A stretch of 64,000 bases of DNA from Yuukianura sp. NJ FZ-2021 (taxonomy: Eukaryota), in assembly GCA_046563655.1 (NCBI GenBank), contig CM102288.1, forward strand, positions 1,426,001 to 1,490,000. Reading direction: 5' to 3'. Each line of letters opens with the position of its first letter. Position 1 is the first letter of the stretch. A program made the translations under genes and the position numbers. The notes beneath the pieces are model-generated. The model worked only from the letters and a program-made list of their open reading frames with translations. It was not told the origin of the DNA and searched no databases. This document shows positions 15,764 to 63,548 of this stretch, piece after piece.

Positions 15764-17983
<2,220 letters not shown>

Positions 17984-37865: not shown

Positions 37866-40800
37866 TCACTTTGATTTGGTGGGTCTCGGTGGAGCTGATG
37901 GTGGCTTCATGAAGAACTTACATTTTCTCCGCGAATTCATAAATCGACGGGGTGAACATGACCAAGTTTTGGCAAAATGTTCGGAATTTCGGAAAGCTGC
38001 GTCTACCAGAAACGGCAAAATTATGCTCCCACGCTTTCCCATTCCAACTTTCCTTTCGGGCGTGACAGTTTTGCAAGTATGCTGAAAATGGAATAAATTT
38101 TCATAAGTTCATGACAAATGTAAGGTCAAAGGTCAAGTTACCCTAGCCATGGCCAAGTAAAACAGTTGATCTGGTGAGTATTTTTCAAAACCAAGCAGAA
38201 TTTGATTTTTGGAGGAAGTATACGTTAGGTTCGAATTTCGAACGAGCGTTTCCAGTAGTAGCTCAGTCGCAGCGACGTAGGCAATGTTTTTTATACGACC
38301 AAAGGCATAGAAAGTGGGATCCATCTGAACCAAAATCCAAATTCAGTTTGATTTTGGTTTTCAATTTTGAAAAATCAACTTTCTGAAATGTTGACCTTGG
38401 GTTCCAGCCGCAAATGGGCAGAAATTCGTCTGAAATCGTCGAACATACATTCGATTCTTGGAATTAGTTCTACTTCCATTTGTTTTTCGGCTGCGACGCT
38501 CGTTTCTGGCTCTTCTACTTCACGATTCTTTTCATACAGAACGAGTACTTAGAAAATGTGAAAAAAATATTTTTTTTTCGTTAAAAAATGTTGATGAACT
38601 TTGACTTTTAGTTGGAGTATTGAGAGCTTACAGTCATCAATTGTGAAATGCATCATGTAGAAAGCTGCAAGATAGAATCCAAAACCAGCCATGTCGAAAA
38701 CTCTGGAAATATAAATATTTAGTTAGTAATTTAAAAAATGTTGGTTTACACAAAGTCAGGATTCAATTTTAATTTACGGAATATCGTTGCCTATAAATGG
38801 TTGTTGAAGTGCACCAAATGGAATAGCTGTTGAAAACGATTAAACCAAGCGTTAATTACAATTAAAAGTAAGTTTTTACTTTTTAATGCAGACTTACATA
38901 AGTATCGTTTTGCTTTTCCAGCCTCTTGTACCGTAGTGACCTTGACATCATCAACAGAGTAGTCTCCGATTGGCCAAAGATGAAATGGCGGAATATTTTG
39001 AAACTTCTTGAGATCGTTTTCAGCTTTGATGGACATCACTTGAATCAAGTTCTCAAAGTACTTGTCCTTGTTCATCTCCAACTACAAACATGAAACCAAA
39101 AATTTCAAAATAATTAAAAACTTAATTAATTGAAAGTGTAATTAATTTAACTCACCCCTTTGTAGAATATGTTAACGTAGGGCTCAAAAGTGGAAACATT
39201 GGTTTGAACTATTTTGAAAGTGGCCAGCGTTTCTTGAAATGATTCCAGCATTGCAGTCGGAAATGCTTCAGAAACATTTTTCAATACAGAACCAACAGTG
39301 TCAAGGATTTCAGACACCTTTTAAAACATATAATCATTAATTAATCATGTAATTTACTAAGTATTTAACTATTTTAATTAATCAAACCCTACCCTAGCAT
39401 TCAGAAACGGAGTATTTTTCAGCTCTTTGGAAAAACGTAGGGCAGCTAAAACATGGAGCCGAGAAAACATACTTCGAAAGCACCTTTCATCCGGTCTGGA
39501 AATAAAATTCAAATAAAATTTCTTTGCATTTTTGTTTTCGAAATTTCGAAAAACTAGGATTACGTGAATCCCATATCTCGAAATACGGGAATCATTGCAT
39601 CGTAAACGTTTGTAGTCAAGTCCACAGCAAAGTGCTTGATCAGAGTCCACTGGAAGTATCGCACTGTGATGAGATCAGAATTTGAAATTGATTTAACAGT
39701 TAATTAACATTGTTAATTAATTACGGATAACGTAGTAAGGTGTATCGTTGAGGAATTCTTCCAGAAGTAGAATGTGGAGTCTATCTTCCTGTTTGAGAAT
39801 GGATTGAACGTAGTTGAAAAATATGGTTACGTTTTTGAAATGACGTTGATGGGAGAACAGAGCTGCCACGAGAGAGCCAAATTCGAAGAAACCTTTCTGA
39901 CCTCATCAAAAACACAACAAAGGTCAAAGGTCAACCTCATAATTTCAAGTGAGCACAACGCAAACCTTAGACGGAATGTAATTTGGATGAAGTTTGGCTG
40001 GTTTTGGAGCAAAAGTGTCCATTTTATCCGGAAATCCAAAGAGAAGCATAGATCTTTTGGATTGAATGTGAACAAGTTCTGCAATAAAATGTGTCAAGAG
40101 GTAGACAATCGTTTCAATTTCATTGTCATCCACAATGTTCAAAGCTGTTTTAAAAAGTTGAAACGTTGTGCGTATTGAGGCAACATAATCTGCTTGGTCT
40201 TTCAATAAAATATACTCTCTGTCCGGGGCAGCCAAGGTGAGCTAAAGGAAGAAAAAATTTCCAAATTTCAATAACTTAAGTTACAATTAGGCTAATATTA
40301 AGTTAATTGTTAACTATTTTTTTTTACCACAATGTAATTCTCTCTCGAACTGTAAACATTTATGAAGACGCGTTTGTAAACTCTTCGGAAAATCCGAATA
40401 ATCGTTCTGCCGATGTTCATTTTCCCGCTTTTGACAGGATCCATCAACTTCAATTCAAACAGCAAGTTAATAAATGGCTGAAATCCAACTCTGTTTCGCT
40501 CATCTTCGTTTATGCAAGAGTGATAGAATGGCAGAATTTGATCCAGTGGGTACCCATGTACACGATGAAGTAATCGACCTAACGAAAATTAGAAAGTTAA
40601 AAAATTAGACCTTGACCTTTTGAAAATTAGAGTGTAGTTTTCAAAATGCCTAATGCTTCGTTGCTGATGTACTCAAATGGAACTCCATCATGAATCCTGA
40701 GGTAACCACCTCGTTTAATATGCGGATTTTTTCTGTATTTTCCGCAAGTGAAATTGTAGAAATTGTCACACGGATTCGTTTTATTGTCAAGTCCTTCTAA

Positions 40801-41800
40801 AATCCATTCACCTGTTTCAAAAAAGAGCCGATTGAGGAATTATATGTTATATTAGGTGGCTAGTATTGTGACCTTGACCTATCGCTTAACATTGAATATA
40901 ATTAATTGTATCAAGAATATCCTTTCTGGGGAAATAATTTAGTATTTTTAGAATCAACTTATGTTCTGGAAATGTACTTACTTAGCTTCAAGCAGTTTCT
41001 GGACTTGCAAGCGTAAGGGTGTTCAAACACTTCGCTTGATTCTGGAAAAAAAACTTCAGTCAAAATTTTGAATTTTTAAAACCATGAAGACTTACGAAGA
41101 AGAAAAATAAACGCTGCAGTATGAAACAGCGTCACGAGCAGCAGCGTTAGAATTAACACAAGAAGGCCACGCCGCCAAGCTGCCGAAGTTTGCCATGATC
41201 TAAGCAATTTTTAATTGAGAAATCATTATTAGTTAAAGAGTATTAGTTTCATTTGAAATTTAAAGCTAAAGTTCACCCATCTTTGTTGTCTTCGTCGTCT
41301 TTTTGATATTGGTCGTAGTAAATTTCACCCCCCTCTTCAGCTCGTGCAGTTCGTTCGGACACAAATGCATTCACAGCTTCGTTTGCAGTGACAGGCGGAT
41401 CCACAAACGGTGTTTCAGAAGTGCTGAGTCGCAGAGCTTCTCCAGTACTTGCGCTTTCCATCGCTGCTGCTCTGGCCACCATCAGTTCGTAGATTGTTTC
41501 ATTGAGTCTCTGGCGCATGTCTCCTGCACTTCTGCCTCCAGCACAAGTATCGTAGGACAATGCATGTTGACCTTTGCCAAAACCAGTCAAGAGCTTTGCA
41601 AGGTCAGCAGAGGCCAAGGACACGCGGTGACCTTGAACATGACCTTCTGGAAGTGATGGCTCGGAAACCGAGGAGACCGAAGACGTTTCGGTGTTTGCTG
41701 GTCCTTGGAAAGAGTAGTCTTCCACTGATGATGAAAATTCATTTCTGTTTGGCGCATTTCCAAATTGACCTTGACCTCTTGTATTGACAGAAAAACTCAT
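37866..41800 (-). CDS. Neprilysin-like (M13 family) copy B, tandem paralog, predicted catalytically inactive
   Basis: Same exon structure as copy A, offset ~4.5 kb. HExxH region reads LAAFYMMHFTIDD. One donor is GC instead of GT (40649-40648). Confidence 0.82.
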
Positions 41801-42352
41801 TTCGGTAAGTCACGCAATACAGTAGAGGTTTCAAAACTCATTAGCTTTTTGAAAAACAGATTTTTTTCCCATCAACTATTTTGGAAGTTTTTTTTATTAT
41901 TCGTTGAATAATATAGTTTTCTTTGCGTTTCCAGGTTAAAAAAAAATTAAATATTGATGTTCAAAAGTAGTTTCGTTGAAATTTTCATTACTACAGGTTG
42001 AACACTACATAAAAATTAACTGTTTTCTTTTTAGGTGTTTACTTGCAGAAACAAGCACAAGATATTCGCTATTTTATACGGCGTGAAAATCAAAGAAAAG
42101 TGAAAAAACTAGCAAATCAGAAAAAAAAAAACTTCATTGTCATTAAACAAAACTTTGAAATTTAATCTCTACAGCTATTTCTGTAAATCAATCGCTCAGT
42201 TCATTGTTCCAAAACAGTTTTTCATGCAATTTAGAGCAGAAATTTCATACAAAACGCAACTTATTTTGACGAAATTTGAAAAAAATCCATGGACTACAGT
42301 TCAGGGATTTTGGCAAAAATCATAAGAATTTCGATTTCTGTTTCATGGGGTT

Positions 42353-42915: not shown

Positions 42916-43531
42916 ATGGCTGGAGTGATTGCAGCGTTATTTCCAAAACGATTGCCACATCCTGTAGGATTTTTCGTATATCCACTAACTCTTCACCTTA
43001 GTGCTCAAATTACAGTAAGTGAACTAAACATTGGGAAAACTTAACGATTACGATTGAATGAATGTAGTTTTGATTTGTTATTTTCCCTAGAGTCAAATTC
43101 CCGTGAATAGTCGCCAGAAAAGCACCACTGTTGAGGCGCCATACAAAACAGTCAAAGACTACGCTGATGCCCGCATAGCCCAACCATCCAAAGGGAAGAT
43201 CTACGACAAGAAACCATTCAAAGTGAAACTAATCAAGGGCAAGAAATACGCATGGTGTTGTTGTGGATGGAGTAAATCACAGGTTAGTTACTTGACTAAA
43301 ACATATTCCAAACCTCAATTCCACGTTAACAATGTCGTTGTCCCTGATTTGCAGCCATTTTGTGACGGAACTCACTCCAACTCTCTTCTTCGTATCAAAC
43401 TTATGCCAGTCATCTTCATAGCTCCTGAAACCAATGAATATTGGTTATGCAACTGTAAACAAACGTCCCAGAGACCGTTCTGTGACGGAACACATCGAGA
43501 GGAAGAAATCCAACTTAAGATAAGATCATAG
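42916..43531 (+). CDS. CISD3: CDGSH iron-sulfur domain protein 3 (MiNT/Miner2-like), probably mitochondrial
   Basis: Exons 42916-43014, 43091-43282, 43355-43531. Two CDGSH motifs, WCCCGWSKSQ|PFCDGTH and LCNCKQTSQRPFCDGTH; N-terminus lacks acidic residues, like a presequence. Confidence 0.93.
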
Positions 43532-44670: not shown

Positions 44671-47010
44671 CTACTCGATAGCTTTTTGGATAAAGTCCAA
44701 AAACCGTTTGGCATATTGTTCAGGTTCACATGTAGAGATTCCTTCGACGTTGCTTCCATATTTGACTGTTTTGGCTGCTTTGGCAGCTTGTTTTTTCATT
44801 CCATAGTGAGTCAGGACGTCAATCACAGCTAAGAAGTAAATCTCACGCTTTGGTGCACCTGAAAAAGAGGAAAAACGAATCAAATCAATCGACGATTAAC
44901 AGAAATTGAAAAGATTTGGAGAAAATCTTACTAGCATTAGAAGGGATGGCATAAATATCAATTTCTGGAATGATTCTGCCGTCAAATTCAAATTCTCCTT
45001 GGAGTCCAGGAGAGGGAGACTCTGGTGGTGTGGGAACTCCGCCACCTTGACCTGGATGACCTTCATCAGAATCATCCACTTCTTCAACGCCATTTTCATC
45101 CTGTAAAGATTCCATCAAAAGACGTAAATTAGCATCGTTAGAATCAAATATCTGTGAACTTGTCAGTGAAGTGACCGGTGAAAACTAACTTGTGAGTCCG
45201 TCTTGTCCTTTTCGTCCTGCTCAGCCTTGTCACAGTCGTGAACACCAAGGAGGAGAGAGTAATCCATGAGATGGAGCTTCGTCAGAAACTGTTAGCACAA
45301 AACAGTTAATTTTTTAATGTGCTGGATCAATTGGAAGGGGTCATTTATGGTTATGTTCTTGTCGTTACTTCGACATCTGCAGTGAGTGTCTCCATGAGCT
45401 TCTCCTTGGCTTCATCTCCAATGTAAACTTTTCCGCCGTCCCGGATAAAGTCATTGTCCTTCAACGTAGGCAGATCTTTCCCTTTCTCCTTACTTGATGC
45501 TTCTCGGTCCACTGTCGAGCCTTTCAGATCGTACTTCCTGACATGCCGAAAATTAAATGATGAATATTGAGCAATATAAGCTTCTAATATCCGATTCAAC
45601 TCACCGATGAAGTTTAAGGTGGTTGCTAAATACGTTCCTGGAGACGACCATCTGAAAGTTACAACAATTCGGACATTGAGCATTCGGTTCGACCTATGTT
45701 TCCAATTCGCTGAGTTTCAATCTTAATCTTACGTAGTGTTCCACACCATCCACCGTTAATCGATACATGCCAAGATACTGGGGGAGGAGTGTCTTTCCAT
45801 GCCGCTCCACGACAAACTAAAAACAAAAAATGGGTTAACTTTGTTAGATAATTCGTGAGCCCAGAAGTAATTGGTTAAGTTGAATTGCTTACAGGATGAT
45901 ACTGTTTCAGAAGTGAGTGCATCTGCTCGATCTCCTCACTTGTCAGAGTCTTAATAATGTAGATCCTATCCGAGGAAATGTAAAACTTTGCTCCGCTCTT
46001 TCCATGATTTGCGAAATGAAGTGGTTCAGACCTAAAACATCAGTTAGCACGTCATAAAAATGTTCAGTCACAATTTTAGGCTAAAATTTTTAGCACAACG
46101 TAAAGAGAAAGTAATTTCCATACCTTGTGAGACTCTCTCTGTAATCTTGATCATCTACACCAAACCGTTCTCTGAGGTTCCGGAAAACGAGTGGGCAGTA
46201 CTCTTTGACTTTGAAATGACTTGGAAGATTTTCCCTAGAGAAATTCAATCTTAACTAACGAACGCGAAAGAAGAGAAATCCAATTAATTATGTTAAAAGT
46301 GTTGAGTTACTTGTTGAATAAATGATTATCCACACGGGTCTTTGAGTAGGAGCGAAAGTCATCCGGCATTAGCATCACCGGAACATTTACACAAGCCAGA
46401 TCATTAATCTGAAACCAGAAGGAAAAGAGACGTCAATTATCAATTAAATACTAACCATATTGAACATTCAACAGCCTCCCACGTCTCAAATGTTCTGCAC
46501 TGCACTGTAATGTCATGCTTGTCTTAAGTGGAATCCAGTGACATAATTTACTGGACTGAGGTCATGAAAGATCAAATTCATTGTGCACAACAAGCGGAAT
46601 TAGGTACACCGAAATATAAATTGGCAAGGTCATTCTACAAACTTCTGAATTCTGCATAAGTGTAAAAATAGAAATCAGAAGATTGGTTGACACTTGACAC
46701 ATGTTGACTTTGTGGGTTTTGTGGAGTGTGGACATGACAGTTTGGATGTGGCGACATGACACACTTAAGTGAACCACAAAGATCACCAGTCATTACCTAA
46801 TCAATTGCAACTACGTTCCACAGATCAGCTAATTAACAAGTAATTATCATCTCTGCTTTGTTACTAGCAGGAAAATGTATTTTTCCTTACCGCATGATTC
46901 ACTCCCCACATAAAAACTGAAATTAGGGGTTCACTTGCTCGAAATACTTTGACTTTTTGATGTTTGACTCGAATATGCTTTTTCTTCAGTTTGCTCGTGA
47001 CCCCACTCAT
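44671..47010 (-). CDS. PIP4K2: Phosphatidylinositol 5-phosphate 4-kinase (type II PIP kinase)
   Basis: Exons 47010-46891, 46408-46311, 46234-46124, 46031-45893, 45816-45733, 45651-45605, 45537-45369, 45288-45190, 45100-44932, 44858-44671. Motifs [55 protein letters not shown], type-II loop [14 protein letters not shown]. Confidence 0.96.
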
Positions 47011-49092: not shown

Positions 49093-50184
49093 ATGTCTTC
49101 TCGAAATAATCAATTCGAAGTAAACCCGGTAAGTTTCAGTTCTTGTCAATTTGTAATCAGCTGAAACTTTTTTACGATTTGATTAACTGATTATTGAATT
49201 TACCAATTTCCTGTGGATTTCAGGATGTGGAGAGCTTCATCACTAGCCTCAAGGAAAAGGCAGAAAACAAAGTGAAGGTGGAATTCCCTGCCAAGATTGT
49301 TGAACTCACACAGTTACTGGAGTCAGCTGACTTCAAGTGCAAGGACCCAGCACAGTTTAACCAAAAGGTCAACATTCCAATACCTGATGCCGAGGCAATT
49401 AGACGTGGAACCACTAACTGCAATAGTAGTGTCGCCGACGAATCGGAATCGTCGTCTCCGCCGACAAGAGGCAAGAAGAGGAAACTGGAAGGGGCCAAGC
49501 AAGCAGCCCCGCCGCCACCAGTTGACGTTGAACTTGACAATGGAAAAATTCAAGGTACAAAAGTACTTGCCCTTCCCAGTGGACCTATTTTTTGCAACAC
49601 CAATATTACCCGTCTCATCGACATCGTCAAGCCTCATATACGCGAACTCGTCGAGGATTCTAACCTGGTAAGTTTAGAAAAACGAAAGATATTCTCATGA
49701 AAGTAGTCTGGAATGAAACTAACTTTTCAAAACCAATTTCAGCTGAAAATGTGGATAACGTTCTTGATTCCAAAGATCGAAGATGGGAATAACTTTGGCG
49801 TAAGTATTCAAGAGGACACATTGGGAGAGATCCGCACCGTGGAGGCTGAGGCTGCTGCCTTTTATGAGCAGATCAGTCGGTACTACATGGGACGTGGGAA
49901 GGTCATATCCAAGGTGAGCTACAAACTTCGTTTGTCCACAATTGATCCATCGTTAAACATTTAAAAGCTAAAACTGAAGAGTGATTTTCTTTTAGATTGC
50001 CAAGTACCCTCAATTCGACGATTACAGAAGGCTTGTGAGTGAATTAGACGAAAAGGAATTTTTGAGTCTGCGTATCGTCGTATCCGAGGTTCGCAACCAC
50101 TACGCTGCCCTCTACGATCTAATTACCAAAAACATGGAGAAGATTGTTCGACCGAGATCGTCAAACGCTGAGAACTTATACTAA
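49093..50184 (+). CDS. PSME3: Proteasome activator complex subunit 3 (PA28-gamma / REG-gamma)
   Basis: Exons 49093-49128, 49224-49667, 49743-49913, 49996-50184. Motifs LKMWITFLIPKIEDGNNFGVSIQE, AKYP, insert NLS KKRK, C-terminus RPRSSNAENLY. Confidence 0.96.
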
Positions 50185-50384: not shown

Positions 50385-53300
50385 TTAATTTTCCAGTTGT
50401 TCAGGTTGAACTTGTGGCTCTTCATGGTTTGGATTTTCCATCATCGAGGCTCGTCTAGTAGCTTCCTGTTCGGCTACTTCTGCTTTCCTTTCATCAAGTT
50501 CTTGCTTGACCGCTCTCTTGAAGAATCCCGTCTGCAAGTCAAAGTTCATCATTGACCAACATTCTGTGAATCTTCAATTACTAATTACCTTGTAAAGTCC
50601 AAACATGATCAGAATCAGGAGCAGGAGTGCACCAATTCCGGAACCAATGTACACCCAAGTTGATTTTTCAGAAATTGAAACATCATTGAAATGGATAATT
50701 GTCTGAGCAAACGATTTTCCAGAATGTTCCCCGAACATTTCAACCGATCCCAACGTTTCTACCAGCAAAATCCTTTTGTCGCCCAAAACTCCAGCTGAAA
50801 TTGAGCGGTTTTCAGTAATTTCTGCCAAAAATGTTTTTCTATGACTAAAATAGTGTAGAAGTACCCGTCTGTGAGGCATTTAGGACCATGCCAATTCTGA
50901 TGAGCTCAATGGGTACATTTGGATGGACATTGTACATGTTACAAGTGACATCCATACAATCTTCAGACGGAACATGATCTCCCAAGTTTCCACAACCAAG
51001 GAGCGACATGTTGGAATTTGGCAAAATGCGGTGTACAATTGGCAAGCGCGATTTGAAATTCTCCGCTTCACGTCGTCGTCTTCGCGATTCCAGTTTTGGC
51101 CCGCCTTCTTCGTCGCCTTGAGCCGGAATTTCATGTCGACTGAACTGAGCGAAGTTTCCAACACACTGAATAGCCTAAAAATTATAAGAATTAATTAGTC
51201 TAGCTCAATTAACTCTAACTTCATTCCTCCAAAGTGACATTCCAATCGATAGATTAACAATGGCATACAATAGAAGTAGGGGCTTTGACTCTCAGCAAGG
51301 TTGGACTGCCGCGTTTCTGCGGAATTTTGAAGTTGAAATACAAGATTCCAACTGGAGACGTTCCAGTGAGAATGACCTAAACGAAAAAAAAACGTTGACC
51401 TTTGACCTGTTCAAATATTTTCTTTTAACTTTTTACCTCATAAAGTTGGAAAAAATTGGAATGGACACTGACAGATTGTTCAGGGGGTGTGACTGAGCCA
51501 ATGAGCTTCACTCCCACATCGTTTGCATTCAGTGTCAGCACAAGGTCTTTTGGCACTTGCTTTTTAGAATTCGGGTCATTTCTAGCTTGGACGCTCACAC
51601 CAACTATAAATTCGTCCTGCTCTGCCTTGGCGTAGATTCCAACCAAGGATACTGCAATTGGGAGTTCGATGGGCTAAAACCAACACAAACAAAACGTTTA
51701 TCAATCGAAAATCAATTAGAATTCATTAATTAACACAGTTGTACCTCATCTGCTCGGAGGGGTTTGTTGAGCGTGCAAGTAAAAATGACTGTAGTGTCTT
51801 TTCTCATTTTAGCTTCCCTGTCACTGTGAAATTGACAGTCGGCAGCGGCCGATTGGAAATCAATTCCTTGTTTCGCTGGAACCGTTTGACTTTTGAATGT
51901 AAACGTCACTTCAGCTGAGTAGGCAGGTTCACCACGATTCGTAAGTTTGACGTGAATCCCAAGTCGTTTGGCCCAATTCAAACTAACTCTGAACAAAATC
52001 ATACAATTTTGATTACTTTCTAATTTTTGAAAAATACAAAATTTTGGCTACAGTTCTTAGCGTCTTACTCTGAAATTTTTTGAGAGTTTCCTGGAATGCT
52101 GTCATCGGCCCACCAAGCTTCAATTCCTAACTCTGGAACACAGTGACTTGGATTCTTGCAAGCAGAATTGATGTTAAGTTCTTGTGGAATTATCCTCTTT
52201 TCCCAAGAAAATGGAGCTAATGGCTCAAACACGTCTGGAATAACGTCATCAATCAATTACTAATTAATCAATTACTTCTGCAGATGACCAATCAATTATT
52301 GACCTCTGCCTCCAAGAATCCTTGCTCTGCCAGAAGTCGATTCAATAACGTATTCCACAACTGAGTTATCCTTGCTTGATTTTCCAGCGTACTTGATCAA
52401 TTGCTGAAACGCAATCGGTTCGATTGAAGCCGATTTCTCATTAAGCGCCTAAACACAAAAAACAATGTCGTTATGTTCAACATTTTGACAGATTTTGAAT
52501 TTGAAAATTGATTTTTCAAAAAACGTTCACAAATTAAAGCTGAGTGTTCTTACGACATGTGCCTTGGCTTGTAGTGTTCTGCAATCAAATTGCAGAGCAT
52601 CCGCTTCAAGTTGAAATGTCACCCGATTGCCGCGTTGGTCACCAACGAATGAAAATCTTGGCTGTTGTTGACCAACGTCCATTTCAAATGTCACATCCAA
52701 CCCTACATTATTTTTTTCCAAAAAAATAAAAAAAATTATAAGAAGAGTTTAAAAAAAAACAATTCAAGTATTAAAAATTACTTAAAGTGTACAGGAATTG
52801 CGCTGATTCTGGTGTTACCACTTACTCAGCTTTGTCTGTGCTTCGGTTAGGGCTTTTCCTTTCAGTTTGACACAAGTTAGGACTTGGAATGACCTTTCGT
52901 TAGCCGGAAGTTGCTGAATTGGTTGGCGGGAATTGGTGTCACTGCCCTCAGCGTAGTAGGTCACGCTTGTTTCAAAATCCAGAACTGGGCGTGTCCTGAG
53001 TAGCACAAGTGACTGGGACTTGTAAGCTCCAACGGCCAAATCTATAACAGAGACCAAATGTTAAAGGTCAAAGGTCACTAAGCTGGTAATTTCTTGTTGG
53101 TTTGCAACTTTAGTTGTAGTACCAGGCGTGTAGTTGTGGTCAACATCCAGTGGAGTAGAAAACGAGCACCCGAATCCTTTCACGTTAAGTGACACAGTGC
53201 TGGACACGATTCGAACAATCGGTTTCCATTCCGTCTCCAAACTTTGTTTTCCGTGGTATATATAAACGGCTCCAACATCTTCGTCTTCATATGGAGCTCC

Positions 53301-55317
53301 GATGGCAAAATCTGAAAATATTCACATTTTGAAACAAGATTTTGACCAAAACAGGTCAAAGGTCAACATTTTTCACCTTGAAATCCGTCTTCATTTATGT
53401 CACCCAGTTTGACCATAGCCGATCCGAATCGACCGCCACGCTTGTTTCCAATTCCAGAAGTAATTCGAATAAGGTTTTGACTTTGAACTACGAATCCCGC
53501 TGTGATGACCTTCAAAAATCACCCAAAATGTAATCTTTGTCAAAGGTCAAAGGTCAAAAGTTGACTTACGCCTGGCAGAGTAGCGCTGTAGAGGAAAACT
53601 GTACCATGATCCACAAACTTTTGAGCTCCAGCTACTGTCGTTACTTCGTCATAAGAAGGAGCTCCAATCAGTAGTTCATCGAGACCATCATTGTTGAGGT
53701 CAACCGAGGTCAAGACAGATCCAAAGTAGGATCCAAATTGATCTCCAATCAGAACCGCTTCTTCCTGGATTCCCTCCATTTCTGTTCTACTCATTTTAAA
53801 AATTACGACATAGCCCAACAGACGTCGCCCTCGCGGTGACCCAGCAGCAAATGAAAACACGTCGGCATGATCAAACTGTCTTCGAAAAAATACTCCAGAA
53901 GTCACAGCATATCCTAAAAACCAAAAATTTTCATTAAAATTTCAAAATTTTGAACATAGTCAAAAACGAAACTTTCAATTTCGAAAAACTTGTCATCTGA
54001 TTCGTACTTACCAAAATACTCGTTAGCATATGCCTTATCCTTGCTTCGTTTTCCAATTCGGTAACCATTGAATTGGGATTTTCCAAAAGCATTTTTACGT
54101 CGCGCGTCAAAACGATCACGAGTGGAATCTTGATATCTGACGATAGCTCCTAGAAATTCAAATTTTCAAGGTCAAAGGTCAAATTTTGAAAAATCAAAAT
54201 TTTGAAAACTTACCTCTCCAGACCTGTACTCCGGGTGCTCCCATTAGCAATTGACCTTCGTTAGTCAAGTGCAAAGATACTCCGGCTTGACCGTGGGCTA
54301 AATTTGGCAGTAGAGTTGTATCGTATTCTTGACTATAAAACTGGAATGGCAAGGAGTCCGCAGAAGTTGCAGCTGAAACGTTATTTTTAATGTTAGTTCT
54401 TAACCTTGTTAATTTTAACTTACAAAATTAGAAAATTAGAAATTAGTAAATTAAAAGGTCTCACGGTAAAAGAATGGAATGAGACGATGGGACATGCTGT
54501 CATCAATATTGAGTTGATTCGTTCCAGTGAACATGCACATGCGTTGGGGGTCGAACCAATAGGCAAGGCCATTCACTACAGGATCCTATCAAAAAAAAAT
54601 GTTACAATTAATAAATAATTCATATAATTTATATAATTCATGAATTTTACAATATAATAAACCTTGTCACCGCCGCGGTGCCAATGATGAGCCGAAATAA
54701 CCAGCCGATTTTCACTGGTCACGATGTTTCCTCCAACCCAGTTCCGGTTGTGATACTCATAGTGCGGAGCTCCGGGAGGACAACGGTTACCGCAATCTGG
54801 AACACAAACGTAAAATTCAAAATATGAATTTCAAATTGTTGACCTTTGACCTCCGAAATTTACCACCTAACTCACCACGTATCGGGTCAATATTTAAAGT
54901 TTCACAATAAGGTACGCCAAGGCCATTTCCAAGATTTTCATAAGAGAACAAAGAGCATCTCCAAACAACTCCAGGTTCATCGACATTCCGAGTGACATAG
55001 GTGGGGTCACGAGTCGCGTTGGCCTTTGGGTCACCAATGAAAATCCTAAACAAAATACGTTTTGAAATATGAAATTTGAATTATGGCGGCATTTTTTTGA
55101 GTTTTAATTACCAAGATGTCGGTCGTCCTTGGACACCCTGGATATTGACCAGCCCGCTGCTCCAGCCGAAGTGCCCTCTACGACTGCCCGACTGGAAAAC
55201 AATTGGATTCAAAAGGTCAAAGGGCGTTTGAACTACTTCATCACCGTTCACTTTTTCCAAAAACAAAAGCAGCGTCACTACTTCAAAAACTACTGACAGG
55301 TAACGTGACTGCAACAT
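50385..55317 (-). CDS. Integrin alpha subunit (no I-domain), 19 coding exons
   Basis: Signal peptide, FG-GAP repeats (SYFGSVLTSVDLNNDGLDELLIGAP; RFGSAMVKLGDINEDGFQDFAIGAPY; DLAVGAY), LLRTRPV, NRGEPAY, furin-type RRRRR|E site (~51065-51090), TM (IGSGIGALLLLILIMFGLY) and KTGFFKR. An AG acceptor directly precedes the ATG, implying upstream 5'UTR exon(s). Subfamily not determined. Confidence 0.95.
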
Positions 55318-56699
55318 CCTAAAAAGTTCAAAATCAATTTCAAAAATTTCAATTTCCCCTGCCTAAAATATCATATTCTAAACCAGAATTCCAACAATTT
55401 ATCCAAATTCTAAGCGATTTGTAGTATTTGGTTCTTCTCAAAGTACTTATTTGTGTCAGGAAGTACAAAATTTTGGTCAAAAATGGACATAAGACAGCGT
55501 CATCATAACCACCAAATCCATCCGGGAAAAAACTAGCTTTTTCTAAAATGAGAGTCACTTCCACCGACAATTTACTTAAATTAATCAAACCCTTTTGCCT
55601 AACACTTGAGCAATTCAAACTCCAAATTCTAAAAAAAACGAAAAAATATCACAGACGACGTGCAAAATTTCTTAAAGCATTTCTCTATTACTGTTTCCAT
55701 TTGCTTAGGCAAGACATGAAAAGCTTTCCATTAAAACCTAAAACCTCAATAGAATTGATGCAGAAGAGACACATTTGTTTTTACAATGTGCAGATTCTGC
55801 GACATTTCAAGGACGCCAACAAGCACTGAAGCGTTGAAACCACATTATTTCAATTGGTCAGTTCAATTCCATCATCATTAACTCTAGGTAGACACAAAAA
55901 ACCCGAAAAAAGTCAATCTACAGCATAACATGCAAAATCCCTAGAGAGATCCACCACCACGCTGGAACCGTCGTTGTTACTTTCCCCTCCACAATTCCAT
56001 TTCCATTATTCCATGCTTCCAGTTGAACCTCCCCTGCACTGGAAGAAACACAGTCCACCTACCTACTCTACCTTCAGCATTCTGTCCATCACCAGTCCAC
56101 AAAACTAAAACAAGATATTGAACTTCGGCAGATAGTGACATTTCCCCGCAAATTAGCAACGATAAGTACAGAAACGCATTTTGGGGTATAGTGACGCACA
56201 CCGAAATATTTTTAGTCCATTGCGTTTAGTGTGGGCAGGGGAAAGTTAGGTTCAGCCAGAAAGTTGGGCTCATTTGACCTGTCTCTGTAGAACAAGCTAC
56301 AGTGAAAGCAGTAGTCCGTTACGGAGGATTATTTCTTTACAAAAAAGCACAGAAAAAAAGTTATCAAAATTTTTATAAAAGTTGTTGCTTCTAAACATTT
56401 TTTTTTCATTTTAAAACAATTTTCTGTTTGTTTGAAGTATTTTTTTTGTCCTCATTAGTGCAGTGAAATCGGAGAATTTTTAAAACAAAGTTTTTTTTTT
56501 AAGTGAAAGTTCGCTTTCCACATCGCTGCCGCTGCGCTGTTGGCAAAAAAACACAGTTTTAATTATACTAGAGCCGCTAACGCTTGAACTTCAAGGTCAT
56601 CTGAGGTCATCACCGCAGTATAAAATATTTGAAAGTGTAATCTATTTCAACATAGGTTGAAAATTGAAAAACTTTCTGAAGTTATAACAACAAAGTAGT

Positions 56700-56760
56700 T
56701 GGGTGGGGTGGGTTTAAGGGCTATATAAGCCTTAAAGTGTGGTTTTTGGGTGGGGTGGAT
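56700..56760 (+). promoter_or_regulatory. Candidate TATA promoter of the FNDC5-like gene
   Basis: TATATAA at 56722-56728 between GGGTGGGGTGG boxes. A + strand donor (G|gtaagg, 57039) and acceptor (ttcag, 59235) could lead to the ATG exon. Confidence 0.35.
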
Positions 56761-59527
56761 TAGACAGTGAAAAGAGGAGGTGGGATCGATGGGGTTTGCA
56801 ACATTGATGAATATATGATTGGATTTCTGGACGACTGTGGGACACTCAGGACAAGAAGTGGACGAGGACATTGGAGAAAGTTTAACCTAACCAAAAAATA
56901 CCCCAAGTAAAAACTGACAGTTTCACTGGAATCCCAACAAAAAACGCAAGTCACCCATCGACTTTCTCTCTTATTGTCTTTTGTTCGCTTGTCACAACAC
57001 AGCCAAGGTGGATGGATCATCGGCAGTTTCGTGACATGGTAAGGTCAGACATTCAAAATTTCAAAAAACAACTTCTTTAAAAAAACGCGTTTTTTTTTTA
57101 AAATCTGGTGAAAGTTTAGTCGGAAAAGTAGGCTTAGTGGCTCCACTTTATAAATAATTCTGAGGCTCACTTTGTGTGAGAGTGACAGAAGGGCGTCAAG
57201 GGGCCTGAGAGCAGTGATCACTGTCACTGTCCTTGTCAACTTTGTGTGTACTCACATAAAGCCTAACCTGAAACCATCAGCATCCCAGATTAGGTTAGGT
57301 TTTTCAGAAAATATGTTAGGTTAACGTTAGGCTAGGCGAGGTTAGCCTAACTTTTCTTTGTTCAAGAGGCCGTAAGGAAAGGAATTAGAATTCCAAGTGG
57401 GAGTTCACAACTTTCACCAAAACTTTCATTTATCCATGGAAAGTGAGTTGTTAAATCTCTGCAGGAAAATAAGACAAGACTTTTAGAGAGAATAGACATG
57501 AAAGAACATAATTTTGCAATTTGAATTCAAAATTTCTAGAAAAAAACTGTTTTAAAAAGGGATTCGTCATCGTCACATTTAAAATCCAATTTTCAACCTG
57601 TCTCTCAAAAGTAGACTTACATTTGCATCACTTTCTTAAAAATGAAACATTCTTCCATTTTGCTTTAAGTTTCAATTTCAGTGAATTTGGAAGCATTGGA
57701 GACCTCAGTTCTCAAGAAATTTAAGTTGTTTGCTTTTACAAGTTCCAACACTTTTTCTGAACTTCATTTTTTTAAAAAGTGTTTTAAAATTTAAAGTTTC
57801 TAGAAAGTTTTGTGGAAAAAAGTGTGAGATGGGGGATGGAGAAAGTTCTTGTATTCACACTCGCTTTCTCCACCCTCCAAATCACCACTTTCTCCAAAAA
57901 CTCCTTCCATTCCTCCCAACTAACAAAGAACTTCCATTACAATTCAAAAATTTCCAATAAAATTTCGAAATTGAGCAATCCAAAATGTATTTTTCTTTCT
58001 CCCATTCACATTCCAAATTCAAACCCACCGACTTTCTCTTTAATAAATCAAACAAAATGAAGGTGTACGGCAGAAAATCCAAGAAAATCGCTTGATTTAA
58101 TTGAGTCTTCTCGATTCCTCTCGATTCTAGATTTTCCATCCATCTAACAAACCCAATTCCTTTTCGAACCTCTTTATCAGATTTGTGCTTTCTTAAGCAC
58201 AAGACCAAAAGCCTAAGCTATTTACTCGATTGAACACTTTCGCTTTTCTAACTTAACCTCGCTCAATCTAATCTAACCTTAACAATCTTCTAAAACCTAT
58301 GCGTCTTAAACTGTCAATTATGAATGTTAGGTAAAGTAAGCAGAACTAAGAAAAACCTTCAGAACTTTTACTTTCTCTTTCTCTCTTTTTCTACAAAGTG
58401 GGAAACCTTTGTTAAATTTTGGCCAATTGAAAAGAAAAAAGTTAGGAAAGGCCCCTAACCTAACCTCTGAGAGAGTCAACGGTGTATCCTAGTTTAGTTC
58501 CAGCATGTAATTGGAGAGAAGACTGACAATTGGGCAAGGATCGACTCAATTATTCAGTTGAATCCATTGTCAAATTCATTTGGCATTTAGGAAGAAGCCA
58601 ATAGGTCGAAATGAGGCATTGTGGCTCCGGCCAAATGGAAAATTTCTGTTTTTCAGCAACGTTTCCAACAACTAACAAAAAAATGTACAATGTGTTCCAA
58701 AAGTTCCTTTCTGTTAGAACTTTCTAAACCGAAAAAGGCTATCCAAAGTGACAAACAAAACCTAAAATATGTCCAGCTTCTAAAAACAAAATGAAAAAAA
58801 GTAGTAATCGTAGTTCCATTAGGAGAAAGTAGAAAGTTGATAGGGAGAATGTTAGTTTTGAAGAGCCGTCAAATCAATATTATCATACACCTTACTCATC
58901 AACACTATAAACATCAGGACTACTAGTGGAGGATTTGATTGATTAATTTACTAACTAAATAAAAATGGAAATGTAAGCTTCTGCTTAGTGCTTTGGACAT
59001 TGCACGGGTTCCATCGATTCTTTTTAGTTAAACAAGGACACATAATTTTCTATTTTCAGGAAAAAACAACCTATAAGTGCTTAAGTGTGTTTCAAAACAG
59101 CCAATTATTCATATCAAAAAAGCAAAGCTTTGGCCTTAGCAAAGGTCAAACGATTCTAAATTTCAGCTGCAAATGACCTCTTTAGGAAATCAGAAATTGA
59201 CCAATGACATTGGCTTTCATTTTTGAAAATTTCAGGAGTGAAAATTTATGACGTGACATGGAAGCCACAGTGTCAAAAGGTCACAGAAACCGTCCCACTT
59301 AGGAAAACAGTTTTTAAATTAAAACGAAAACGTTTTGAAAACGACGACGTTTCTCCGTGGGAGTTATGACCAACATGAAGCGGGAACATGACACTAACCA
59401 AACGTCAATTAATAGTTTTAACGTGTTTAACTTACGGAACGAAATTAGTAGATCGTCACTGCATCGTCACTGATTAACTTCTTTGTTCTTGTGCTGTCCA
59501 TACTGATTGTTGATTGGTTGATGGGAA

Positions 59528-61172
59528 ATGTGGGTTTTGGCGGCCATTTTCCTGTCCGTCCTCCAAGCGGCGGCTTCACCCGAGGGTATTTTTCCTGAAA
59601 ATAGTGCAAAAAATAATTAGATTAATGAAATTGTACTAATTTTTAATAAAACTGTATTAGGAACTACTGGACAAACAACTACTATACTCCTACCGATACC
59701 CACCAAATCCTCTGACCACTACTCTCAAAACTTAACAGTAGTGGAAATGACCCCTAGGTAAGGAAAAAGTAACAATTCGCGGGAATTTTTTAAAATTCAA
59801 AAGCAACGTAATGTTTGACCTTTGACATTCCCCCACAAGGTCAATTAGCCTCAGATGGAGTTGTCGGAACCACCACCACGATAAGTACGAAATGACGCTC
59901 AAACCTCTCAAAGCAACGTAAGAACATACAAAACCTTCGTTTGAAACTAATTAAAAGCGATTTTCAATCTATGACCTTTGACCTTGTCCATTTCATAGGT
60001 ACAGGGTTATTGAAACTATTCCGCGGTAAGGTTCCATTTTGAAAAAAAACGTTTCAGTTACGTAAATAAGCGTTTAAGGTCTCATGATTCGTCAATTTCA
60101 GGAATAGTTGTCACCAAACAATAGAAAATCTACTTCCGGACACGGACTACCAAATATTCATAACACTCTTCACTCGTAACATTAGAAAGCGGTCCAACAT
60201 TTTGATAGTAAAAACTCCCAGTAAGTTGACCTCTGACCTTGACCAAATTGAGAAACAGCGGATTAACTAATACATAGATGAGAGTTTAAAATATGTGGCT
60301 TTTTATAGTGGAGGAACCTGAAGTAGAGCTGGAAGAAGTGATGCAAGACGAGCCCTCAAGGGAGCTCAAGATGCCGCAAGTCAAGTTTGTCGAACTAAGT
60401 TTAGTAGGCCTCGCTCTCGCCCTTTGGATTGTTGCCATTGGTAAGATTTGCGTTATTGAATTTAGATGACCTTGACCTTTGACCTCAACTAGTATTCTCT
60501 AGCTCTGTTTTTTCATCGTTGGGGTAAAATCCGTATGCTGCTTCCCTATCAACCGGACTTCAAGGAGAAACCGGCTGGTTCCAGTTGTACAAGTTTCATT
60601 AATCCTCATCTCCAGGTTAAGCAAAACTAGAATCAGCGATTATATTCCAGCCTTTTCGTTGTGATTTCGACTTCTTTGACCTCGATTTTGCTTACAACTT
60701 CTTTGACGTTGATTTTTTGGTTTCAGTTTGCCCATTCAAGGATTCCGCATGAATACCACGGTCAAATTGCCGGTGGTATTTGTTCGATGGGAGCAATGGG
60801 AATGGGACTTGTATCCTCCGTGGCAGTACCTCCAACACCAGTAGCAGTTCCAGCACCAGTACCAGTGACAGACTCCGGCTGTAGTCCCATGAGACCACGT
60901 CTCAATTCATTCATACCAAAAACTACCACGACGGTAAGGAAATTATAAGAAATGAAAGTGTCAGAAGTATTCAATAGAATGGCCACTTACGGAAGGATCA
61001 AAGGTCTGGAAATCGCTTTCACTTTTGTTCTTTTTCATCCTCGTAGATGGAATCATCCAACAAAGTCCCAATGGAACTCCGGATTTACCGGAAGACCAAG
61101 AGTGCCGAATGCCTCAGTCCTACCACCTCCAACTTTCATCCCGACGATGATATTCAATTCATCGACTTTTGA
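59528..61172 (+). CDS. FNDC4/FNDC5 (irisin precursor)-like type I membrane protein with one FN3 domain, ~318 aa
   Basis: Exons 59528-59585, 59661-59757, 59840-59917, 59999-60025, 60102-60220, 60309-60440, 60503-60615, 60727-60933, 61047-61172 join in frame (957 nt). Signal peptide MWVLAAIFLSVLQAAAS; FN3 pattern (NLTVVEMTPRSISLRW...IENLLPDTDYQIFIT); TM/juxtamembrane VELSLVGLALALWIVAIALFFHRWGKIRMLLPYQP resembles the FNDC5 E-x(9-10)-W-x3-IALF TM pattern as I recall it. Confidence 0.8.
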
Positions 61173-62655
61173 GTCCACTTCAGCGGGGTCGACCAAAGTA
61201 CTAGAGAAAACGATCAAAAGAGAAAGAATCGAAAATCAATATCATCTCCAATATTATTCAATAACGTTGAAAACCAAAAGTAGCCTGATGAATAACACAT
61301 AAATATTATGTATAATGCATAATACATTGTACAACACTTTTCGAATAAAATTAGAAGAGACAGGATTCAATCATGGACGGTTTCGGTCCTCCAATTTACT
61401 TACCCCGGAATCGGTCCTACACCAAAAAACAAGCAGTTGCACGACTACTATGCAAAACCGTACTTTGAAATTGATTAATTTGACAATTGGCATTGGCCCT
61501 GGTCAACATTTTAAAACCGTACTTTAAAAACGGTCAGAAATGCATTAACAAAGTAAGTTTACGTTAGCTATATTAGCCTACATTTACAGTCTTACGTGAC
61601 AAATTATCGGTGAAATCTTTCTGTTCAATCAGGCTTCTATAAAAATGAACGGTATTCGTATTCATGTCAAAGGCAGTCTGTGACGTATGCAGTTAATTGG
61701 AATGATCGTTTTCAATGAAGAAGAGTACAAAAGAATCTTCCCCTAAAGTTAACTAACAATTCCATTAACATTTTCAGTCCATCTTTCTTCTGTAGCAGAA
61801 GTTGTTTTGAATCTGATGACTGACACAAAAGGTTTATGAACATCCTCCACTTCGATTACTTCCGCCACTTGCTCCAAATCCCAAACCAGAATCCGCTATC
61901 TGTAATCATAAAAAAAATTAAATTAACAATCAATTCAATTAATCGCAATTATAAAACCATTCACAAACTCATAGCGTGTAACCAATTTAAAAGCCCTAAA
62001 GTTATTTGGGAGATCACGTTAGCTGTTAGCACCACTTCCCGCTCTCTATTGTGAAGAGCTTACAAATTCAAATCTACAAACTCAAAACAAAATACCAAAG
62101 GGGAGAATAGGGAAGAGAGAAGAGGGACATTGGCAGGGGACGGATGGATATTTCTTCAAGCAACTAACACGAGTTACTACAAAGAGGTATAAAGTACTAA
62201 CCACAAATTCCTAACACAGGTAATTTAATCGTTTCAATTCGAGAAAACCAGAATTAATCAATCTGCAGCAGCTTTTTGTACCGTATGTTCTTTTGATTTT
62301 AGGTTAACTGCACAGACACAGGGAAAACAGCGACGACAACGAACAGCTGATTTGAAGCTAACAAGATAGTGGATGCACTTGAGCTAATCACAAGTTGAAG
62401 ATGCGTTCTGTCAACCAATTGTGAACCATTCCATTACCTACGGTGCTTTAAGCTGTCCAGTTCGTAGCGAGAGCATTTTAAGGTATGTGCATACATGATT
62501 TTGGTTAACTAATTCTATGCCCAAGCGAAGGTGCAACTGAATAATGTTTACGCTGTTTCAATTTCAGACCTGCAAAAATTCAAAAGTTAAGACATTTCTG
62601 AAGAATCTATCACAAACAAGAGAGGACTACTTAACAAATCCGGAAGTAAAGGAGA

Positions 62656-63548
62656 ATGGATCCGAATTGGGGCCAAGGCGGTGGACCAGGACCAGGACCA
62701 GTAAGGTCCGCAGGATTCTGGAACACAAGGACCACAATTCACCAAGGCCCTTACCGCCATAGAGGTCGTGGCAGTAGTGGTTGGTATAGAACAAGGAATC
62801 CAAACGACAACTACTACCCACCAAGAACAGGAAATTGGAACAATCAGCGCCCTAATCAACCATACTACCGGACTCCAAATCCATATCGACCCGGCGGATT
62901 TCGGGGAAGGCCGCAGTTCTACTCTACTCCATACGTAAGGTTATCCTCTGTCGGAAATAACCTGCTAAACCCATAACGATAATCGCTAAAATTCTAACGA
63001 TGACCAATGTTTGACATTAAACTTCCTACTCTACGAACCCAATACTTCTAAAACTACACGCAACCAGTTATGACGAAAGTGTAACGTTATCAATCCTTCT
63101 GCAAAAACTAAACTAAAACTGAGTTTCTTTCTAATTTTAGGTACACCCTCCACGTCATATGCTCAAGCTCAACCAAACCAATATCGACAACTGGATAAGT
63201 CCTAAGATGTGGGAAGATCCTTGGGCAGACCTAATGCAACGGTTCGACCCTCCAAAACCAATACCGGATCCAACATCGGTATCCTCACCTCCGACTCCTT
63301 CAAGTTCAAAAGATGCTACTAATCTAAGCCATGATCCTGTTCAAACGTCTAACTCTCTAACTAGTACTGTACTCAATTTACAACCAAGTGATGATGAACC
63401 TGCTAAACTTCAAGAGTCAAAGGAAGAATCAAAAGTTCAAAATAACTCACCAGCTACAGAAGAACTGCAAGACTCAAGCATCGGACCACCGCCGGCCAAA
63501 CGACCTCACATCGTAACTTACGAAACTTTAGAAACATTTCCAGAATAA
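62656..63548 (+). CDS. MPLKIP/TTDN1-like protein (Gly/Pro/Arg/Tyr-rich N-terminus plus EDPW motif)
   Basis: Exons 62656-62934 and 63141-63548 (phase 0). Motif IDNWISPKMWEDPWADL resembles the conserved Y-x2-P-x-M-x-EDPW-x2-L core of MPLKIP. Gene model is solid; family call is tentative. Confidence 0.6.

Follow-up and report, generated by a model that had tools for sequence, protein, structure and literature searches.

Does the head-to-head pairing of an integrin alpha gene with a gene for a small FN3 membrane protein reflect a partnership of receptor and ligand, or the order in which the two genes were inherited? The question arises from a stretch of 64,000 nucleotides from Yuukianura sp. NJ FZ-2021, here called the window, in which the integrin start codon (55317, minus strand) and the start codon of the FN3-TM gene (59528, plus strand) diverge across approximately 4.2 kb. 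A preliminary description of this DNA had found no other gene between them, and on this both gene models and our searches of the spacer agree. It had also taken the second gene for a hidden relative of the irisin precursor FNDC5, and the pair for a candidate receptor–ligand module. The reading that we prefer, with a probability of roughly 0.7, is that these are two divergent membrane-protein genes lying in an inherited gene order of a springtail-like hexapod, and that they form no receptor–ligand module.

Two divergent membrane-protein genes

The coding part of the integrin alpha gene (50385..55317, minus strand) runs from the ATG at 55317 to the stop at 50385, and the curated model comprises 19 exons encoding 1181 amino acids (exons 1–7: 55317-55112, 55045-54864, 54796-54651, 54585-54465, 54372-54214, 54149-54012, 53913-53570; exons 8–13: 53509-53377, 53311-53123, 53041-52826, 52702-52554, 52448-52304, 52234-52069; exons 14–19: 51988-51745, 51673-51437, 51376-51269, 51174-50865, 50794-50589, 50531-50385). 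The model is predicted, with several junctions supported by splice signals alone and exons 7–11 corrected by hand; the automatic splice models, erroneous at exons 7–11 or 15–18, were replaced by a curated mix. FG-GAP matches were obtained with Pfam from the exon translations at E 3e-8 and 6e-4, the former from exon 7 (53570..53913, minus strand; PF01839), which encodes beta-propeller blades and a calcium-binding loop, and Integrin_A_Ig_2 was matched at E 9e-5, its 22.9 bits lying slightly below the cut-off of 24. The model aligns colinearly from end to end with integrin alphas (221 bits for P0046, 196 bits for P0049). An FG-GAP beta-propeller, Ig-like legs, a single transmembrane helix and a GFFKR motif C-terminal to that helix mark the product as an integrin alpha subunit; the last exon (50385..50531, minus strand) encodes the final part of the membrane span, the GFFKR and the tail in the cytoplasm, as read from its ORF translation and the gene model.

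No VWA or I-domain match was found with Pfam in the exon translations, and a run of five arginines lies about 150 residues N-terminal of the transmembrane helix. In alpha subunits a polybasic site is the place of cleavage into heavy and light chains, and the cleaved alphas that have no I-domain comprise the arthropod PS1, PS2 and PS3 groups and the vertebrate alpha3, 5, 6, 7, 8, V and IIb. The window integrin resembles these in its FG-GAP propeller, its D-x-[DN]-x-[DN] calcium loops, its Ig-like legs with a polybasic site in the last of them, its transmembrane helix and its GFFKR, but it is about 24% identical to every full-length reference compared. As part of the best explanation as a whole, we regard it as probably a lineage-divergent integrin alpha without an I-domain and with a poly-arginine candidate cleavage site. 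Immediately 5′ of its ATG stands an acceptor-like tttttag (a good match), so that there may be an upstream non-coding exon and the two transcription start sites (TSSs) may lie less than 4.2 kb apart.

The FN3-TM gene has its coding part at 59528..61172 on the plus strand (ATG 59528, stop 61172), in nine exons (exons 1–5: 59528-59585, 59661-59757, 59840-59917, 59999-60025, 60102-60220; exons 6–9: 60309-60440, 60503-60615, 60727-60933, 61047-61172). Every junction is GT-AG and the frame closes to give exactly 318 amino acids, laid out as a signal peptide (predicted from the hydrophobic N-terminus), an FN3 domain, an acidic stalk, a transmembrane helix and DUF4808. With the exception of exon 1, all exons (2–9) have a tblastn or tblastx counterpart in the contigs L003 or L013. 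Exons 2–5 (59661..60220, plus strand) encode the FN3 ectodomain, at whose start lies an N-x-T site with its N and T near-invariant across the fn3 + PF16066 family. Exon 5 alone gives a weak Pfam fn3 match (E 0.18); exons 2–5 align to the fn3 domains of orthologues, which pass Pfam fn3 at E 6e-10 to 5e-8, and for the Folsomia orthologue (P0248) the AF2 model contains a beta-sandwich with pLDDT 82–97. The acidic stalk, the helix and the cytoplasmic motif LFFHRWGKIRMLLPYQP (DUF4808) are encoded by exons 6–7 (60309..60615, plus strand). Exon 7 alone matches PF16066 (DUF4808) at E 1.8e-11, with 45.1 bits against a cut-off of 27, and carries LFF[HN]RWGKIRMLLPYQP directly after the membrane helix.

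Orthologues are present in the springtails Folsomia (P0248), Orchesella (P0005) and Allacma (P0011), and since they are already annotated there, the gene is not hidden as had been thought. Exon 7 as query retrieved 39 candidates, every one with PF16066, and the best of those with names are from Collembola; PF16066 is likewise present in all 120 profile matches listed of 575, and each of the 20 representatives looked up belongs to Pancrustacea, including Folsomia LOC110862087 and a Drosophila protein. The D. setifemur protein P0234 joins PF16066 and fn3 to the seven-residue string DDVTSTA, which Cobb et al. (2023; PMC10523451) give as the cleavage-region string of Idit. Automatic names within the family vary, with 6 of the 120 listed matches, all insect members, named FNDC4 or FNDC5 by their source and others 'tenascin-R' or 'collagen alpha-1(XIV)'. 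In the ESM Atlas the Folsomia orthologue leads to DUF4808 + fn3 clusters from Arthropoda and Mollusca, and to a chordate FNDC9-like cluster at 0.85 that we treat as a lead only.

The window protein shares with Drosophila Idit and other arthropod fn3 + DUF4808 proteins a signal peptide, a single FN3 domain with an N-terminal N-x-T, a stalk, a transmembrane helix and the invariant LFF[HN]RWGKIRMLLPYQP motif. It differs from the insect members in its FN3 domain, which is only about 27–33% identical, and in its short tail (318 residues in total, against 400–760 in several insect isoforms). Membership in the Iditarod or 'FNDC4/5-like' arthropod family, as proposed earlier, is borne out by the PF16066 match of exon 7 and by the Idit string of P0234. 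The gene belongs to a pancrustacean PF16066 family and, within the same overall explanation, is probably the local orthologue of Drosophila Iditarod (CG33143).

Conservation is unevenly spread along the protein. The columns of the juxtamembrane motif are invariant in alignments of 7 and of 30 family sequences, save L212 (the second Leu of MLLP); its YQP is near-invariant in the 30-sequence alignment, and RWGKIRML was found in 194 of 351 collected proteins. Mean identity between the window protein and 30 family members is 66% in the juxtamembrane segment, 59% in the transmembrane helix, 32% in FN3 and 20% in the stalk.

The spacer and the gene order in related contigs

The start codons are separated by a spacer of 4,210 bp (55318..59527) in which no gene was found: none of its 16 ORFs (53–111 aa) has a Pfam match at E < 0.06, no tRNA was detected at 55318-59527, and the single Rfam match, at 25.6 bits, is far under the gathering score of 117. 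Compared with L003, a related metagenome contig, the spacer has no coding-like conservation and just one conserved non-coding block, of 47 nt (56781..56827), which is 85% identical to L003 3018-3064 (blastn E 2e-8 to 6e-8). The block contains an ATCGAT core and ATTGG (CCAAT in reverse), and its distance to the integrin ATG is 1,464 nt in the window and 1,271 nt in L003. As a structured RNA it was rejected (z-score -0.9, no Rfam match). The candidate TATA previously placed about 1.4 kb from the integrin ATG does exist, as TATATAAG, read directly at 56722-56729 on the plus strand and 1,405 nt from that ATG, but the aligned stretch of L003 is without a TATA. The spacer holds one short tandem repeat, the 11-mer ATCGTCACTGC in 1.9 copies (59452..59472, plus strand), situated 56–76 nt upstream of the FN3 gene ATG. 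Within it lies an initiator-like TCACTG, matched in L003 by TCAGTG at a comparable spacing, and we infer that this region may hold a proximal TSS of the FN3 gene. As a separate observation, a perfect DR1-like 12-mer shows a strong restriction to introns, and the spacer has no copy of it.

The head-to-head order is kept in L003, with the integrin orthologue on the minus strand (1708-71; 46–70% identity over aa 14–430), the FN3-TM orthologue on the plus strand (6444-8230; 41–69% identity, about 48% for the protein) and a spacer of 4,696 bp as against 4,210 bp in the window. The adjacency thus recurs in a related genome, in this one contig. In the upstream sequence of L002, at least 4.8 kb long, we found no integrin (tblastn E up to 50) and no coding-like ORF of at least 70 aa, and L001 has just 1.7 kb of upstream sequence; neither contig counts for or against the integrin linkage. 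By our own post hoc estimate, the chance that an integrin alpha is the immediate neighbour of a given gene is about 1 in 2,000, assuming that a handful of the roughly 20–30 thousand genes encode integrin alphas; the sole independent check on a chance pairing is the same order in L003. The linkage is real and moderately conserved. However, an MPLKIP-like gene downstream of the Iditarod-like gene is matched in L001, L002 and L003 too, and because this next gene is also syntenic, conservation of the pair is indistinguishable from general collinearity, and the idea of a specific linkage loses its footing. Our literature search found no paper joining FNDC5, 'integrin alpha' and synteny.

The alternative that survives best, although we consider it unlikely, is a co-regulated divergent pair: the spacer of 4–5 kb would be a shared control region, the 47-bp block would be a common promoter-proximal or enhancer element, both membrane proteins would be made in the same cells, and selection on the shared DNA would keep the genes together. 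Conserved order and spacer length fit this alternative, as do the lone block (with an ATCGAT and a CCAAT-like core), which lies comparably far from the integrin ATG in both genomes, and the acceptor-like sequence before that ATG, which suggests a 5′UTR exon farther into the spacer. However, the divergent starts of bidirectional promoter pairs typically lie within about 1 kb of each other, and 4,210 bp, a distance between ATGs and not between TSSs, is far beyond that. Moreover, the TATA beside the block is not conserved in L003, the initiator-like motifs 60–75 nt upstream of the FN3 ATG in both genomes suggest that this gene has a proximal start of its own, and the single block may serve one gene only. 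With the downstream neighbour conserved too, no special force is needed to keep the pair together.

Relation to irisin and to alphaV integrins

A further alternative, which strikes us as very improbable, is that the FN3 ectodomain, shed or membrane-bound, binds the window integrin as irisin is reported to bind alphaV-beta5. Besides the linkage kept in L003, it can draw on the irisin–alphaV signalling reported for mammals (PMC11853655), and on the architecture and N-terminal N-x-T site that the family shares with FNDC5. FNDC5 is N-glycosylated at Asn-36, near the domain start (PMC11853655), and BLAST with Idit reportedly gives FNDC5 and FNDC4 as the top hits in human and mouse (Cobb et al., 2023; PMC10523451); CDD is reported to place DUF4808 in the buffalo FN-III family, gene not specified. 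The likeness to FNDC5 and FNDC4 lies in the single-FN3 type-I architecture and the N-glycosylation site near the domain start, and the transmembrane helices of vertebrate FNDC4/5 and of the window family may be alike. When the family profile was searched against solved structures, irisin (4lsd) was the best single-domain chain, with 45.2 bits against 36.2 for the next. With the Folsomia orthologue (P0248) alone, however, irisin came 11th of 17 (13.8 bits, E 0.2), and by fold, Foldseek put it at rank 9–10 of hundreds of FN3 domains (E 1.7e-6; the top match had 2.7e-7). The best 150 of 8,714 matches in an exhaustive search of representatives were dominated by giant multi-FN3 proteins. The FN3 domain of P0248 matches irisin no better than it matches domains of tenascin, NCAM2 or contactin. 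The link of the FN3-TM gene to vertebrate FNDC5 thus appears to be indirect, the FN3 fold being generic and irisin probably not the closest solved FN3.

On the receptor side, the window integrin could not be tied to alphaV or PS2. Its full-length identity is about 24% to each full-length reference compared, in a set without the PS1 to PS5 arthropod alphas, and the best full-length matches were an unnamed wasp alpha, a Nematostella 'alpha-9' and alpha-3b, at 23–24% each. Exon 7 is the sole segment that matches solved integrins, and there alphaV, named earlier in connection with mammalian irisin, scores lowest (alpha5 57 bits, alpha4 52, alphaM 47, alphaIIb 40, alpha6 38, alphaV about 30); the N-terminal and calf-1 ORFs, two of the three exon-bearing integrin ORFs searched, gave no solved-integrin match at E up to 1. 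In a homologue search with the 133-aa propeller ORF, the top rows were occupied by long FG-GAP proteins that lack the leg domains of integrins, and the highest-placed named arthropod match was only 37% identical; the integrin piece led only to generic FG-GAP clusters in the ESM Atlas. Judged by these comparisons, the integrin seems too divergent to be placed in the alphaV/PS2 clade.

The mammalian pair of irisin and alphaV-beta5 also brings together an integrin alpha and an FN3-TM gene of a related family, but there the link is biochemical and not genomic, whereas in the window it is genomic only and the alpha does not look alphaV-like. No integrin beta subunit gene was seen within the stretch examined, and in animals, to our knowledge, a ligand gene is not as a rule linked to that of its receptor. 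The pattern of constraint also runs against a ligand, in that the best-conserved stretch is the membrane helix with the cytoplasmic juxtamembrane segment (59–66% mean identity), and the FN3 ectodomain, at only 32%, is a fast-evolving part of the family. Idit is furthermore described as cell-autonomous in flies (PMC10523451; PMC11853655). Of the receptor–ligand pair that had been proposed, the linkage is real, and the receptor–ligand reading has no support here. We also give very little credence to a combined version, namely a selected, co-regulated pair of an Iditarod/FNDC5-like gene and a lineage-specific integrin, with a control region marked by the 47-bp block and the FN3 domain engaging the integrin in cis or after shedding. 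Pure coincidence of one genome, without conservation, is barely credible. Springtail genomes are gene-dense (129.6 genes/Mb in Folsomia; PMC5490193), so that close neighbours are to be expected for every gene, but L003 contradicts this reading by sharing the order, the orientation and the size of the spacer.

A probable inherited gene order and the Iditarod family

The inherited order that we favour builds on the observed gene models, family membership, spacer content and L003 synteny, from which we infer that the linkage is neutral. The integrin, the Iditarod-like gene and the MPLKIP-like gene would form a conserved block common to related genomes, their adjacency perhaps held by a long spacer that would regulate one of the genes or both and contains a single conserved 47-bp element, which could be a shared control element. 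What counts against a neutral order is that the pair and its spacer size survive at a divergence of about 48% identity for the FN3-TM protein and about 46–70% for the integrin N-terminus, which is substantial for such an arrangement. A second counterpoint is that alpha5, which belongs with alphaV to the RGD-binding group, is the top solved match of the comparable integrin segment.

The Iditarod-like product would be a type-I membrane protein whose single FN3 domain is N-glycosylated and joined by an acidic stalk to the transmembrane helix, with the invariant juxtamembrane motif following on the cytoplasmic side. Its mode of action can be suggested from sequence: most likely it acts at or within the producing cell's own membrane, via this motif, and shedding of the FN3 domain is possible. 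Such membrane-local action fits the cell- and tissue-autonomous role of Idit reported for flies (PMC10523451; PMC11853655).

Were the pair selected and its products partners after all, it would be genomic evidence that a partnership of the irisin family with integrins predates vertebrates, and if the pairing were functional it would offer a genetically tractable invertebrate handle on irisin-family signalling, which is debated, and on whether integrins were ancestral partners. For the present, the value of the locus lies in two gene models that are fixed, an Iditarod family that is pancrustacean, and a small synteny block that is documented. As far as the alignments indicate, the strongest constraint in this family is on the membrane and juxtamembrane segment and not on the 'hormone' domain, which speaks for a receptor-like or cell-autonomous ancestral role.

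The Iditarod-like gene and its family

The gene models bear out the back-to-back arrangement of the integrin alpha gene and the FN3-TM gene. As previously proposed, the latter encodes a protein of 318 aa, in a closed 957-nt frame over nine GT-AG exons on the plus strand (59528-61172), within sequence of eukaryotic character (GC ~37-41%, introns of 57-123 nt). The predicted product has a hydrophobic N-terminus, followed by an FN3 domain (exons 2-5), an acidic stalk with a membrane helix (exon 6) and a cytoplasmic segment beginning LFFHRWGKIRMLLPYQP (exon 7). Exon 7 alone matches DUF4808 (PF16066; Pfam, E 1.8e-11), and all 39 proteins found by searching with it bear PF16066; the closest named matches are from the springtails Orchesella and Allacma, and Daphnia likewise has a family member. 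A profile built from 7 members retrieved 575 proteins. PF16066 was present in 120 of the 120 listed, nearly all of them also with fn3, and the 20 representatives whose names were looked up are all from Pancrustacea (insects of many orders, Folsomia candida LOC110862087, a mantis shrimp, a prawn and a lobster). Mollusc clusters from the ESM Atlas may widen the FN3 + DUF4808 family, as a lead only.

A Drosophila setifemur member (P0234) combines fn3 and PF16066 with the string DDVTSTA, placed by Cobb et al. 2023 (PMC10523451) in the cleavage region of Iditarod (Idit), and the PF16066 family is therefore probably the Iditarod family. Judged by sequence, the window gene is a springtail-like member of it, with 39-40% identity to the Folsomia and Orchesella proteins and 48-56% to the products of two related metagenome contigs, L003 and L013. 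The preliminary description had called the gene hidden, a term that does not fit a family already annotated elsewhere. Intron 4 (60026-60101, 76 nt) separates exon 5 from a preceding exon of just 27 nt; its counterpart is absent in L003, L013 and a third contig, L001, where the coding sequence is continuous, a pattern that suggests a recent gain in the window's lineage. Contig L002 carries a second TM/DUF4808 coding copy (7120-7272 and 10696-10806), 3.5 kb downstream of the first; one possibility is an alternative exon, another a tandem paralogue. No such copy was found in the window.

The link of the Iditarod-like gene to FNDC5 is indirect. FNDC5 and FNDC4 are the best mammalian matches of Idit according to Cobb et al. 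(PMC10523451), whose account emphasises homology in the membrane segment, and FNDC5 has in common with the window family its architecture and an N-x-T site where the FN3 domain begins (PMC11853655). FNDC4 or FNDC5 is the source-given name for 6 of the 120 listed insect members. When the family profile was used, no single-domain solved chain outscored irisin (the FNDC5 ectodomain, 4lsd), with 45 bits against 36 for the runner-up, and the 12 chains ranked above it were all multi-domain proteins. These points favour the link; those that follow are neutral or weigh against it. Tenascin-R and collagen XIV also occur as automatic names within the family. The Folsomia orthologue alone matched irisin at 13.8 bits (E 0.2, rank 11 of 17), outranked by tenascin and NCAM2, and its AlphaFold model (pLDDT 82-97 in the FN3 region, 63 overall) matched at least 500 FN3 chains, with irisin at rank 9-10.

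The integrin alpha gene

The integrin alpha gene was found as claimed on the minus strand, with its ATG at 55317 and its stop at 50385. Our model (19 exons, 1181 aa) was curated by hand and replaces two automatic splice searches, each wrong in places; curation lifted the best-reference alignment score from 194 to 221 bits and regained the canonical propeller patterns. The predicted protein has FG-GAP repeats (Pfam E 3e-8), an Ig-like leg domain slightly below the Pfam cut-off, a five-arginine run within the last leg domain and a membrane helix with GFFKR; no I-domain was found with Pfam. Top full-length identities were 23.7% to an unnamed wasp alpha, 24.4% to a Nematostella 'alpha-9' and 23.3% to alpha-3b. 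Matches to solved integrins were limited to the calcium-loop propeller exon (alpha5 57 bits, alpha4 52, alphaM 47, alphaIIb 40, alpha6 38, alphaV ~30), and two further exon-bearing ORFs matched no solved integrin. A canonical PS1 or PS2 orthologue would be expected to have close insect relatives, and the best named arthropod match reached only 37% identity. Our reading, from a comparison made without PS1 to PS5 references, is of a divergent, possibly lineage-specific alpha. Converging on this gene is one for a PA28 proteasome activator (49191-50184, plus strand; PA28_N E 3e-14, PA28_C E 2e-25), the two stop codons lying ~200 bp apart.

A repeated intronic 12-mer and other features

The 12-mer TGACCTTTGACC reads on the opposite strand as a perfect DR1 direct repeat, a nuclear-receptor half-site pair. 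At up to 1 mismatch it occurs 27 times in the 64 kb, where 0.28 copies would be expected, and 15 of the 27 are exact; examples are at 59816, 59972, 60227 and 60473 on the plus strand and 53066, 53354, 53545 and 54170 on the minus strand. The two modelled genes have 26 introns, of which 10 hold it at this threshold (8 sense, 2 antisense) and 12 at up to 2 mismatches, usually 12-45 nt upstream of the acceptor. No copy at up to 1 mismatch was found in the 4,503 nt of their exons, and none at all in the 4,210-nt spacer between them. Introns 3 and 6 of the L013 orthologue retain the 12-mer amid otherwise diverged intron sequence, and no copy is present in L003. The 12-mer could serve splicing, as an extended branch-site or other intronic element, or could be a relic of how the introns arose; we found no description of it in the literature.

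Elsewhere, the window holds a tandem segmental duplication of ~4 kb (33319-37641 and 37866-42123, 86-91% identity), both copies with matching ORFs, and pieces of genes for a class-V aminotransferase (17330-17755, plus), a CDGSH iron-sulfur domain protein (43091-43528, plus) and PIP5K (45354-45716, minus).

Linkage, constraint and the receptor-ligand reading

A spacer of 4,210 bp (55318-59527) lies between the two start codons. It holds 16 ORFs (53-111 aa), none of which matches Pfam at better than E 0.06; no tRNA was found there, the single Rfam match reached 25.6 bits where the gathering score is 117, and no coding-like conservation was seen against L003. The TATA candidate noted previously is present at 56722-56729 (TATATAAG) but is not conserved in L003. 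The sole spacer stretch that aligns is a 47-nt block (56781-56827, L003 3018-3064; 85% identical, E ~1e-8), which starts 52 nt downstream of TATATAAG, holds ATCGAT and ATTGG cores and is about as far from the integrin ATG in the window as in L003; we regard this block as a candidate enhancer or promoter-proximal element.

In a scan of metagenome contigs, the family profile picked out 37 loci. L003 (15,974 bp) carries an integrin orthologue on the minus strand (1708-71, 46-70% identity over residues 14-430), within which the contig terminates, and an FN3-TM orthologue on the plus strand (6444-8230), with start codons at 1747 and 6444 and thus a spacer of 4,696 bp. L001 extends only 1.7 kb upstream of its FN3-TM locus, and the 4.8 kb upstream in L002 are non-coding, with no integrin in that stretch; neither contig allows the pairing to be judged. 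The pairing is thus preserved in the one other contig, within this clade, in which it could be judged. The next downstream neighbour of the FN3 gene, an MPLKIP-like gene (62650-63545, plus strand; PF15502 E 2e-4, below cut-off) whose product has an N-terminal part rich in Arg/Gly/Asn/Pro/Tyr, is collinear with it in L001, L002 and L003, and the pairing appears to be embedded in a block of general collinearity.

The two genes had been put forward as a candidate receptor-ligand pair, an irisin-integrin module that may be co-expressed. Of this, the assignment to the family stands, as does a degree of conservation of the linkage; the receptor-ligand and co-expression ideas gained no support from anything that our tests covered. 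Against them are the integrin, which by its matches appears not to be alphaV-like, the conservation of the downstream neighbour as well, and the distribution of constraint in the Iditarod-like protein. Mean identity of the window protein to 30 family members, region by region, was 32% for the FN3 domain, 20% for the stalk, 59% for the membrane helix, 66% for the juxtamembrane segment and 23% for the tail; of the structured regions, the ectodomain shows the weakest constraint across the family. We found no paper tying FNDC5 to integrin alpha genes by synteny. Both genes are previously undescribed members of known families. The invariant cytoplasmic motif and fast-evolving ectodomain of the Iditarod-like protein would fit signalling or sorting via the membrane-proximal part, and fit less well with a conserved secreted ligand, a pattern in line with reports that Idit acts tissue-autonomously (PMC10523451, PMC11853655).
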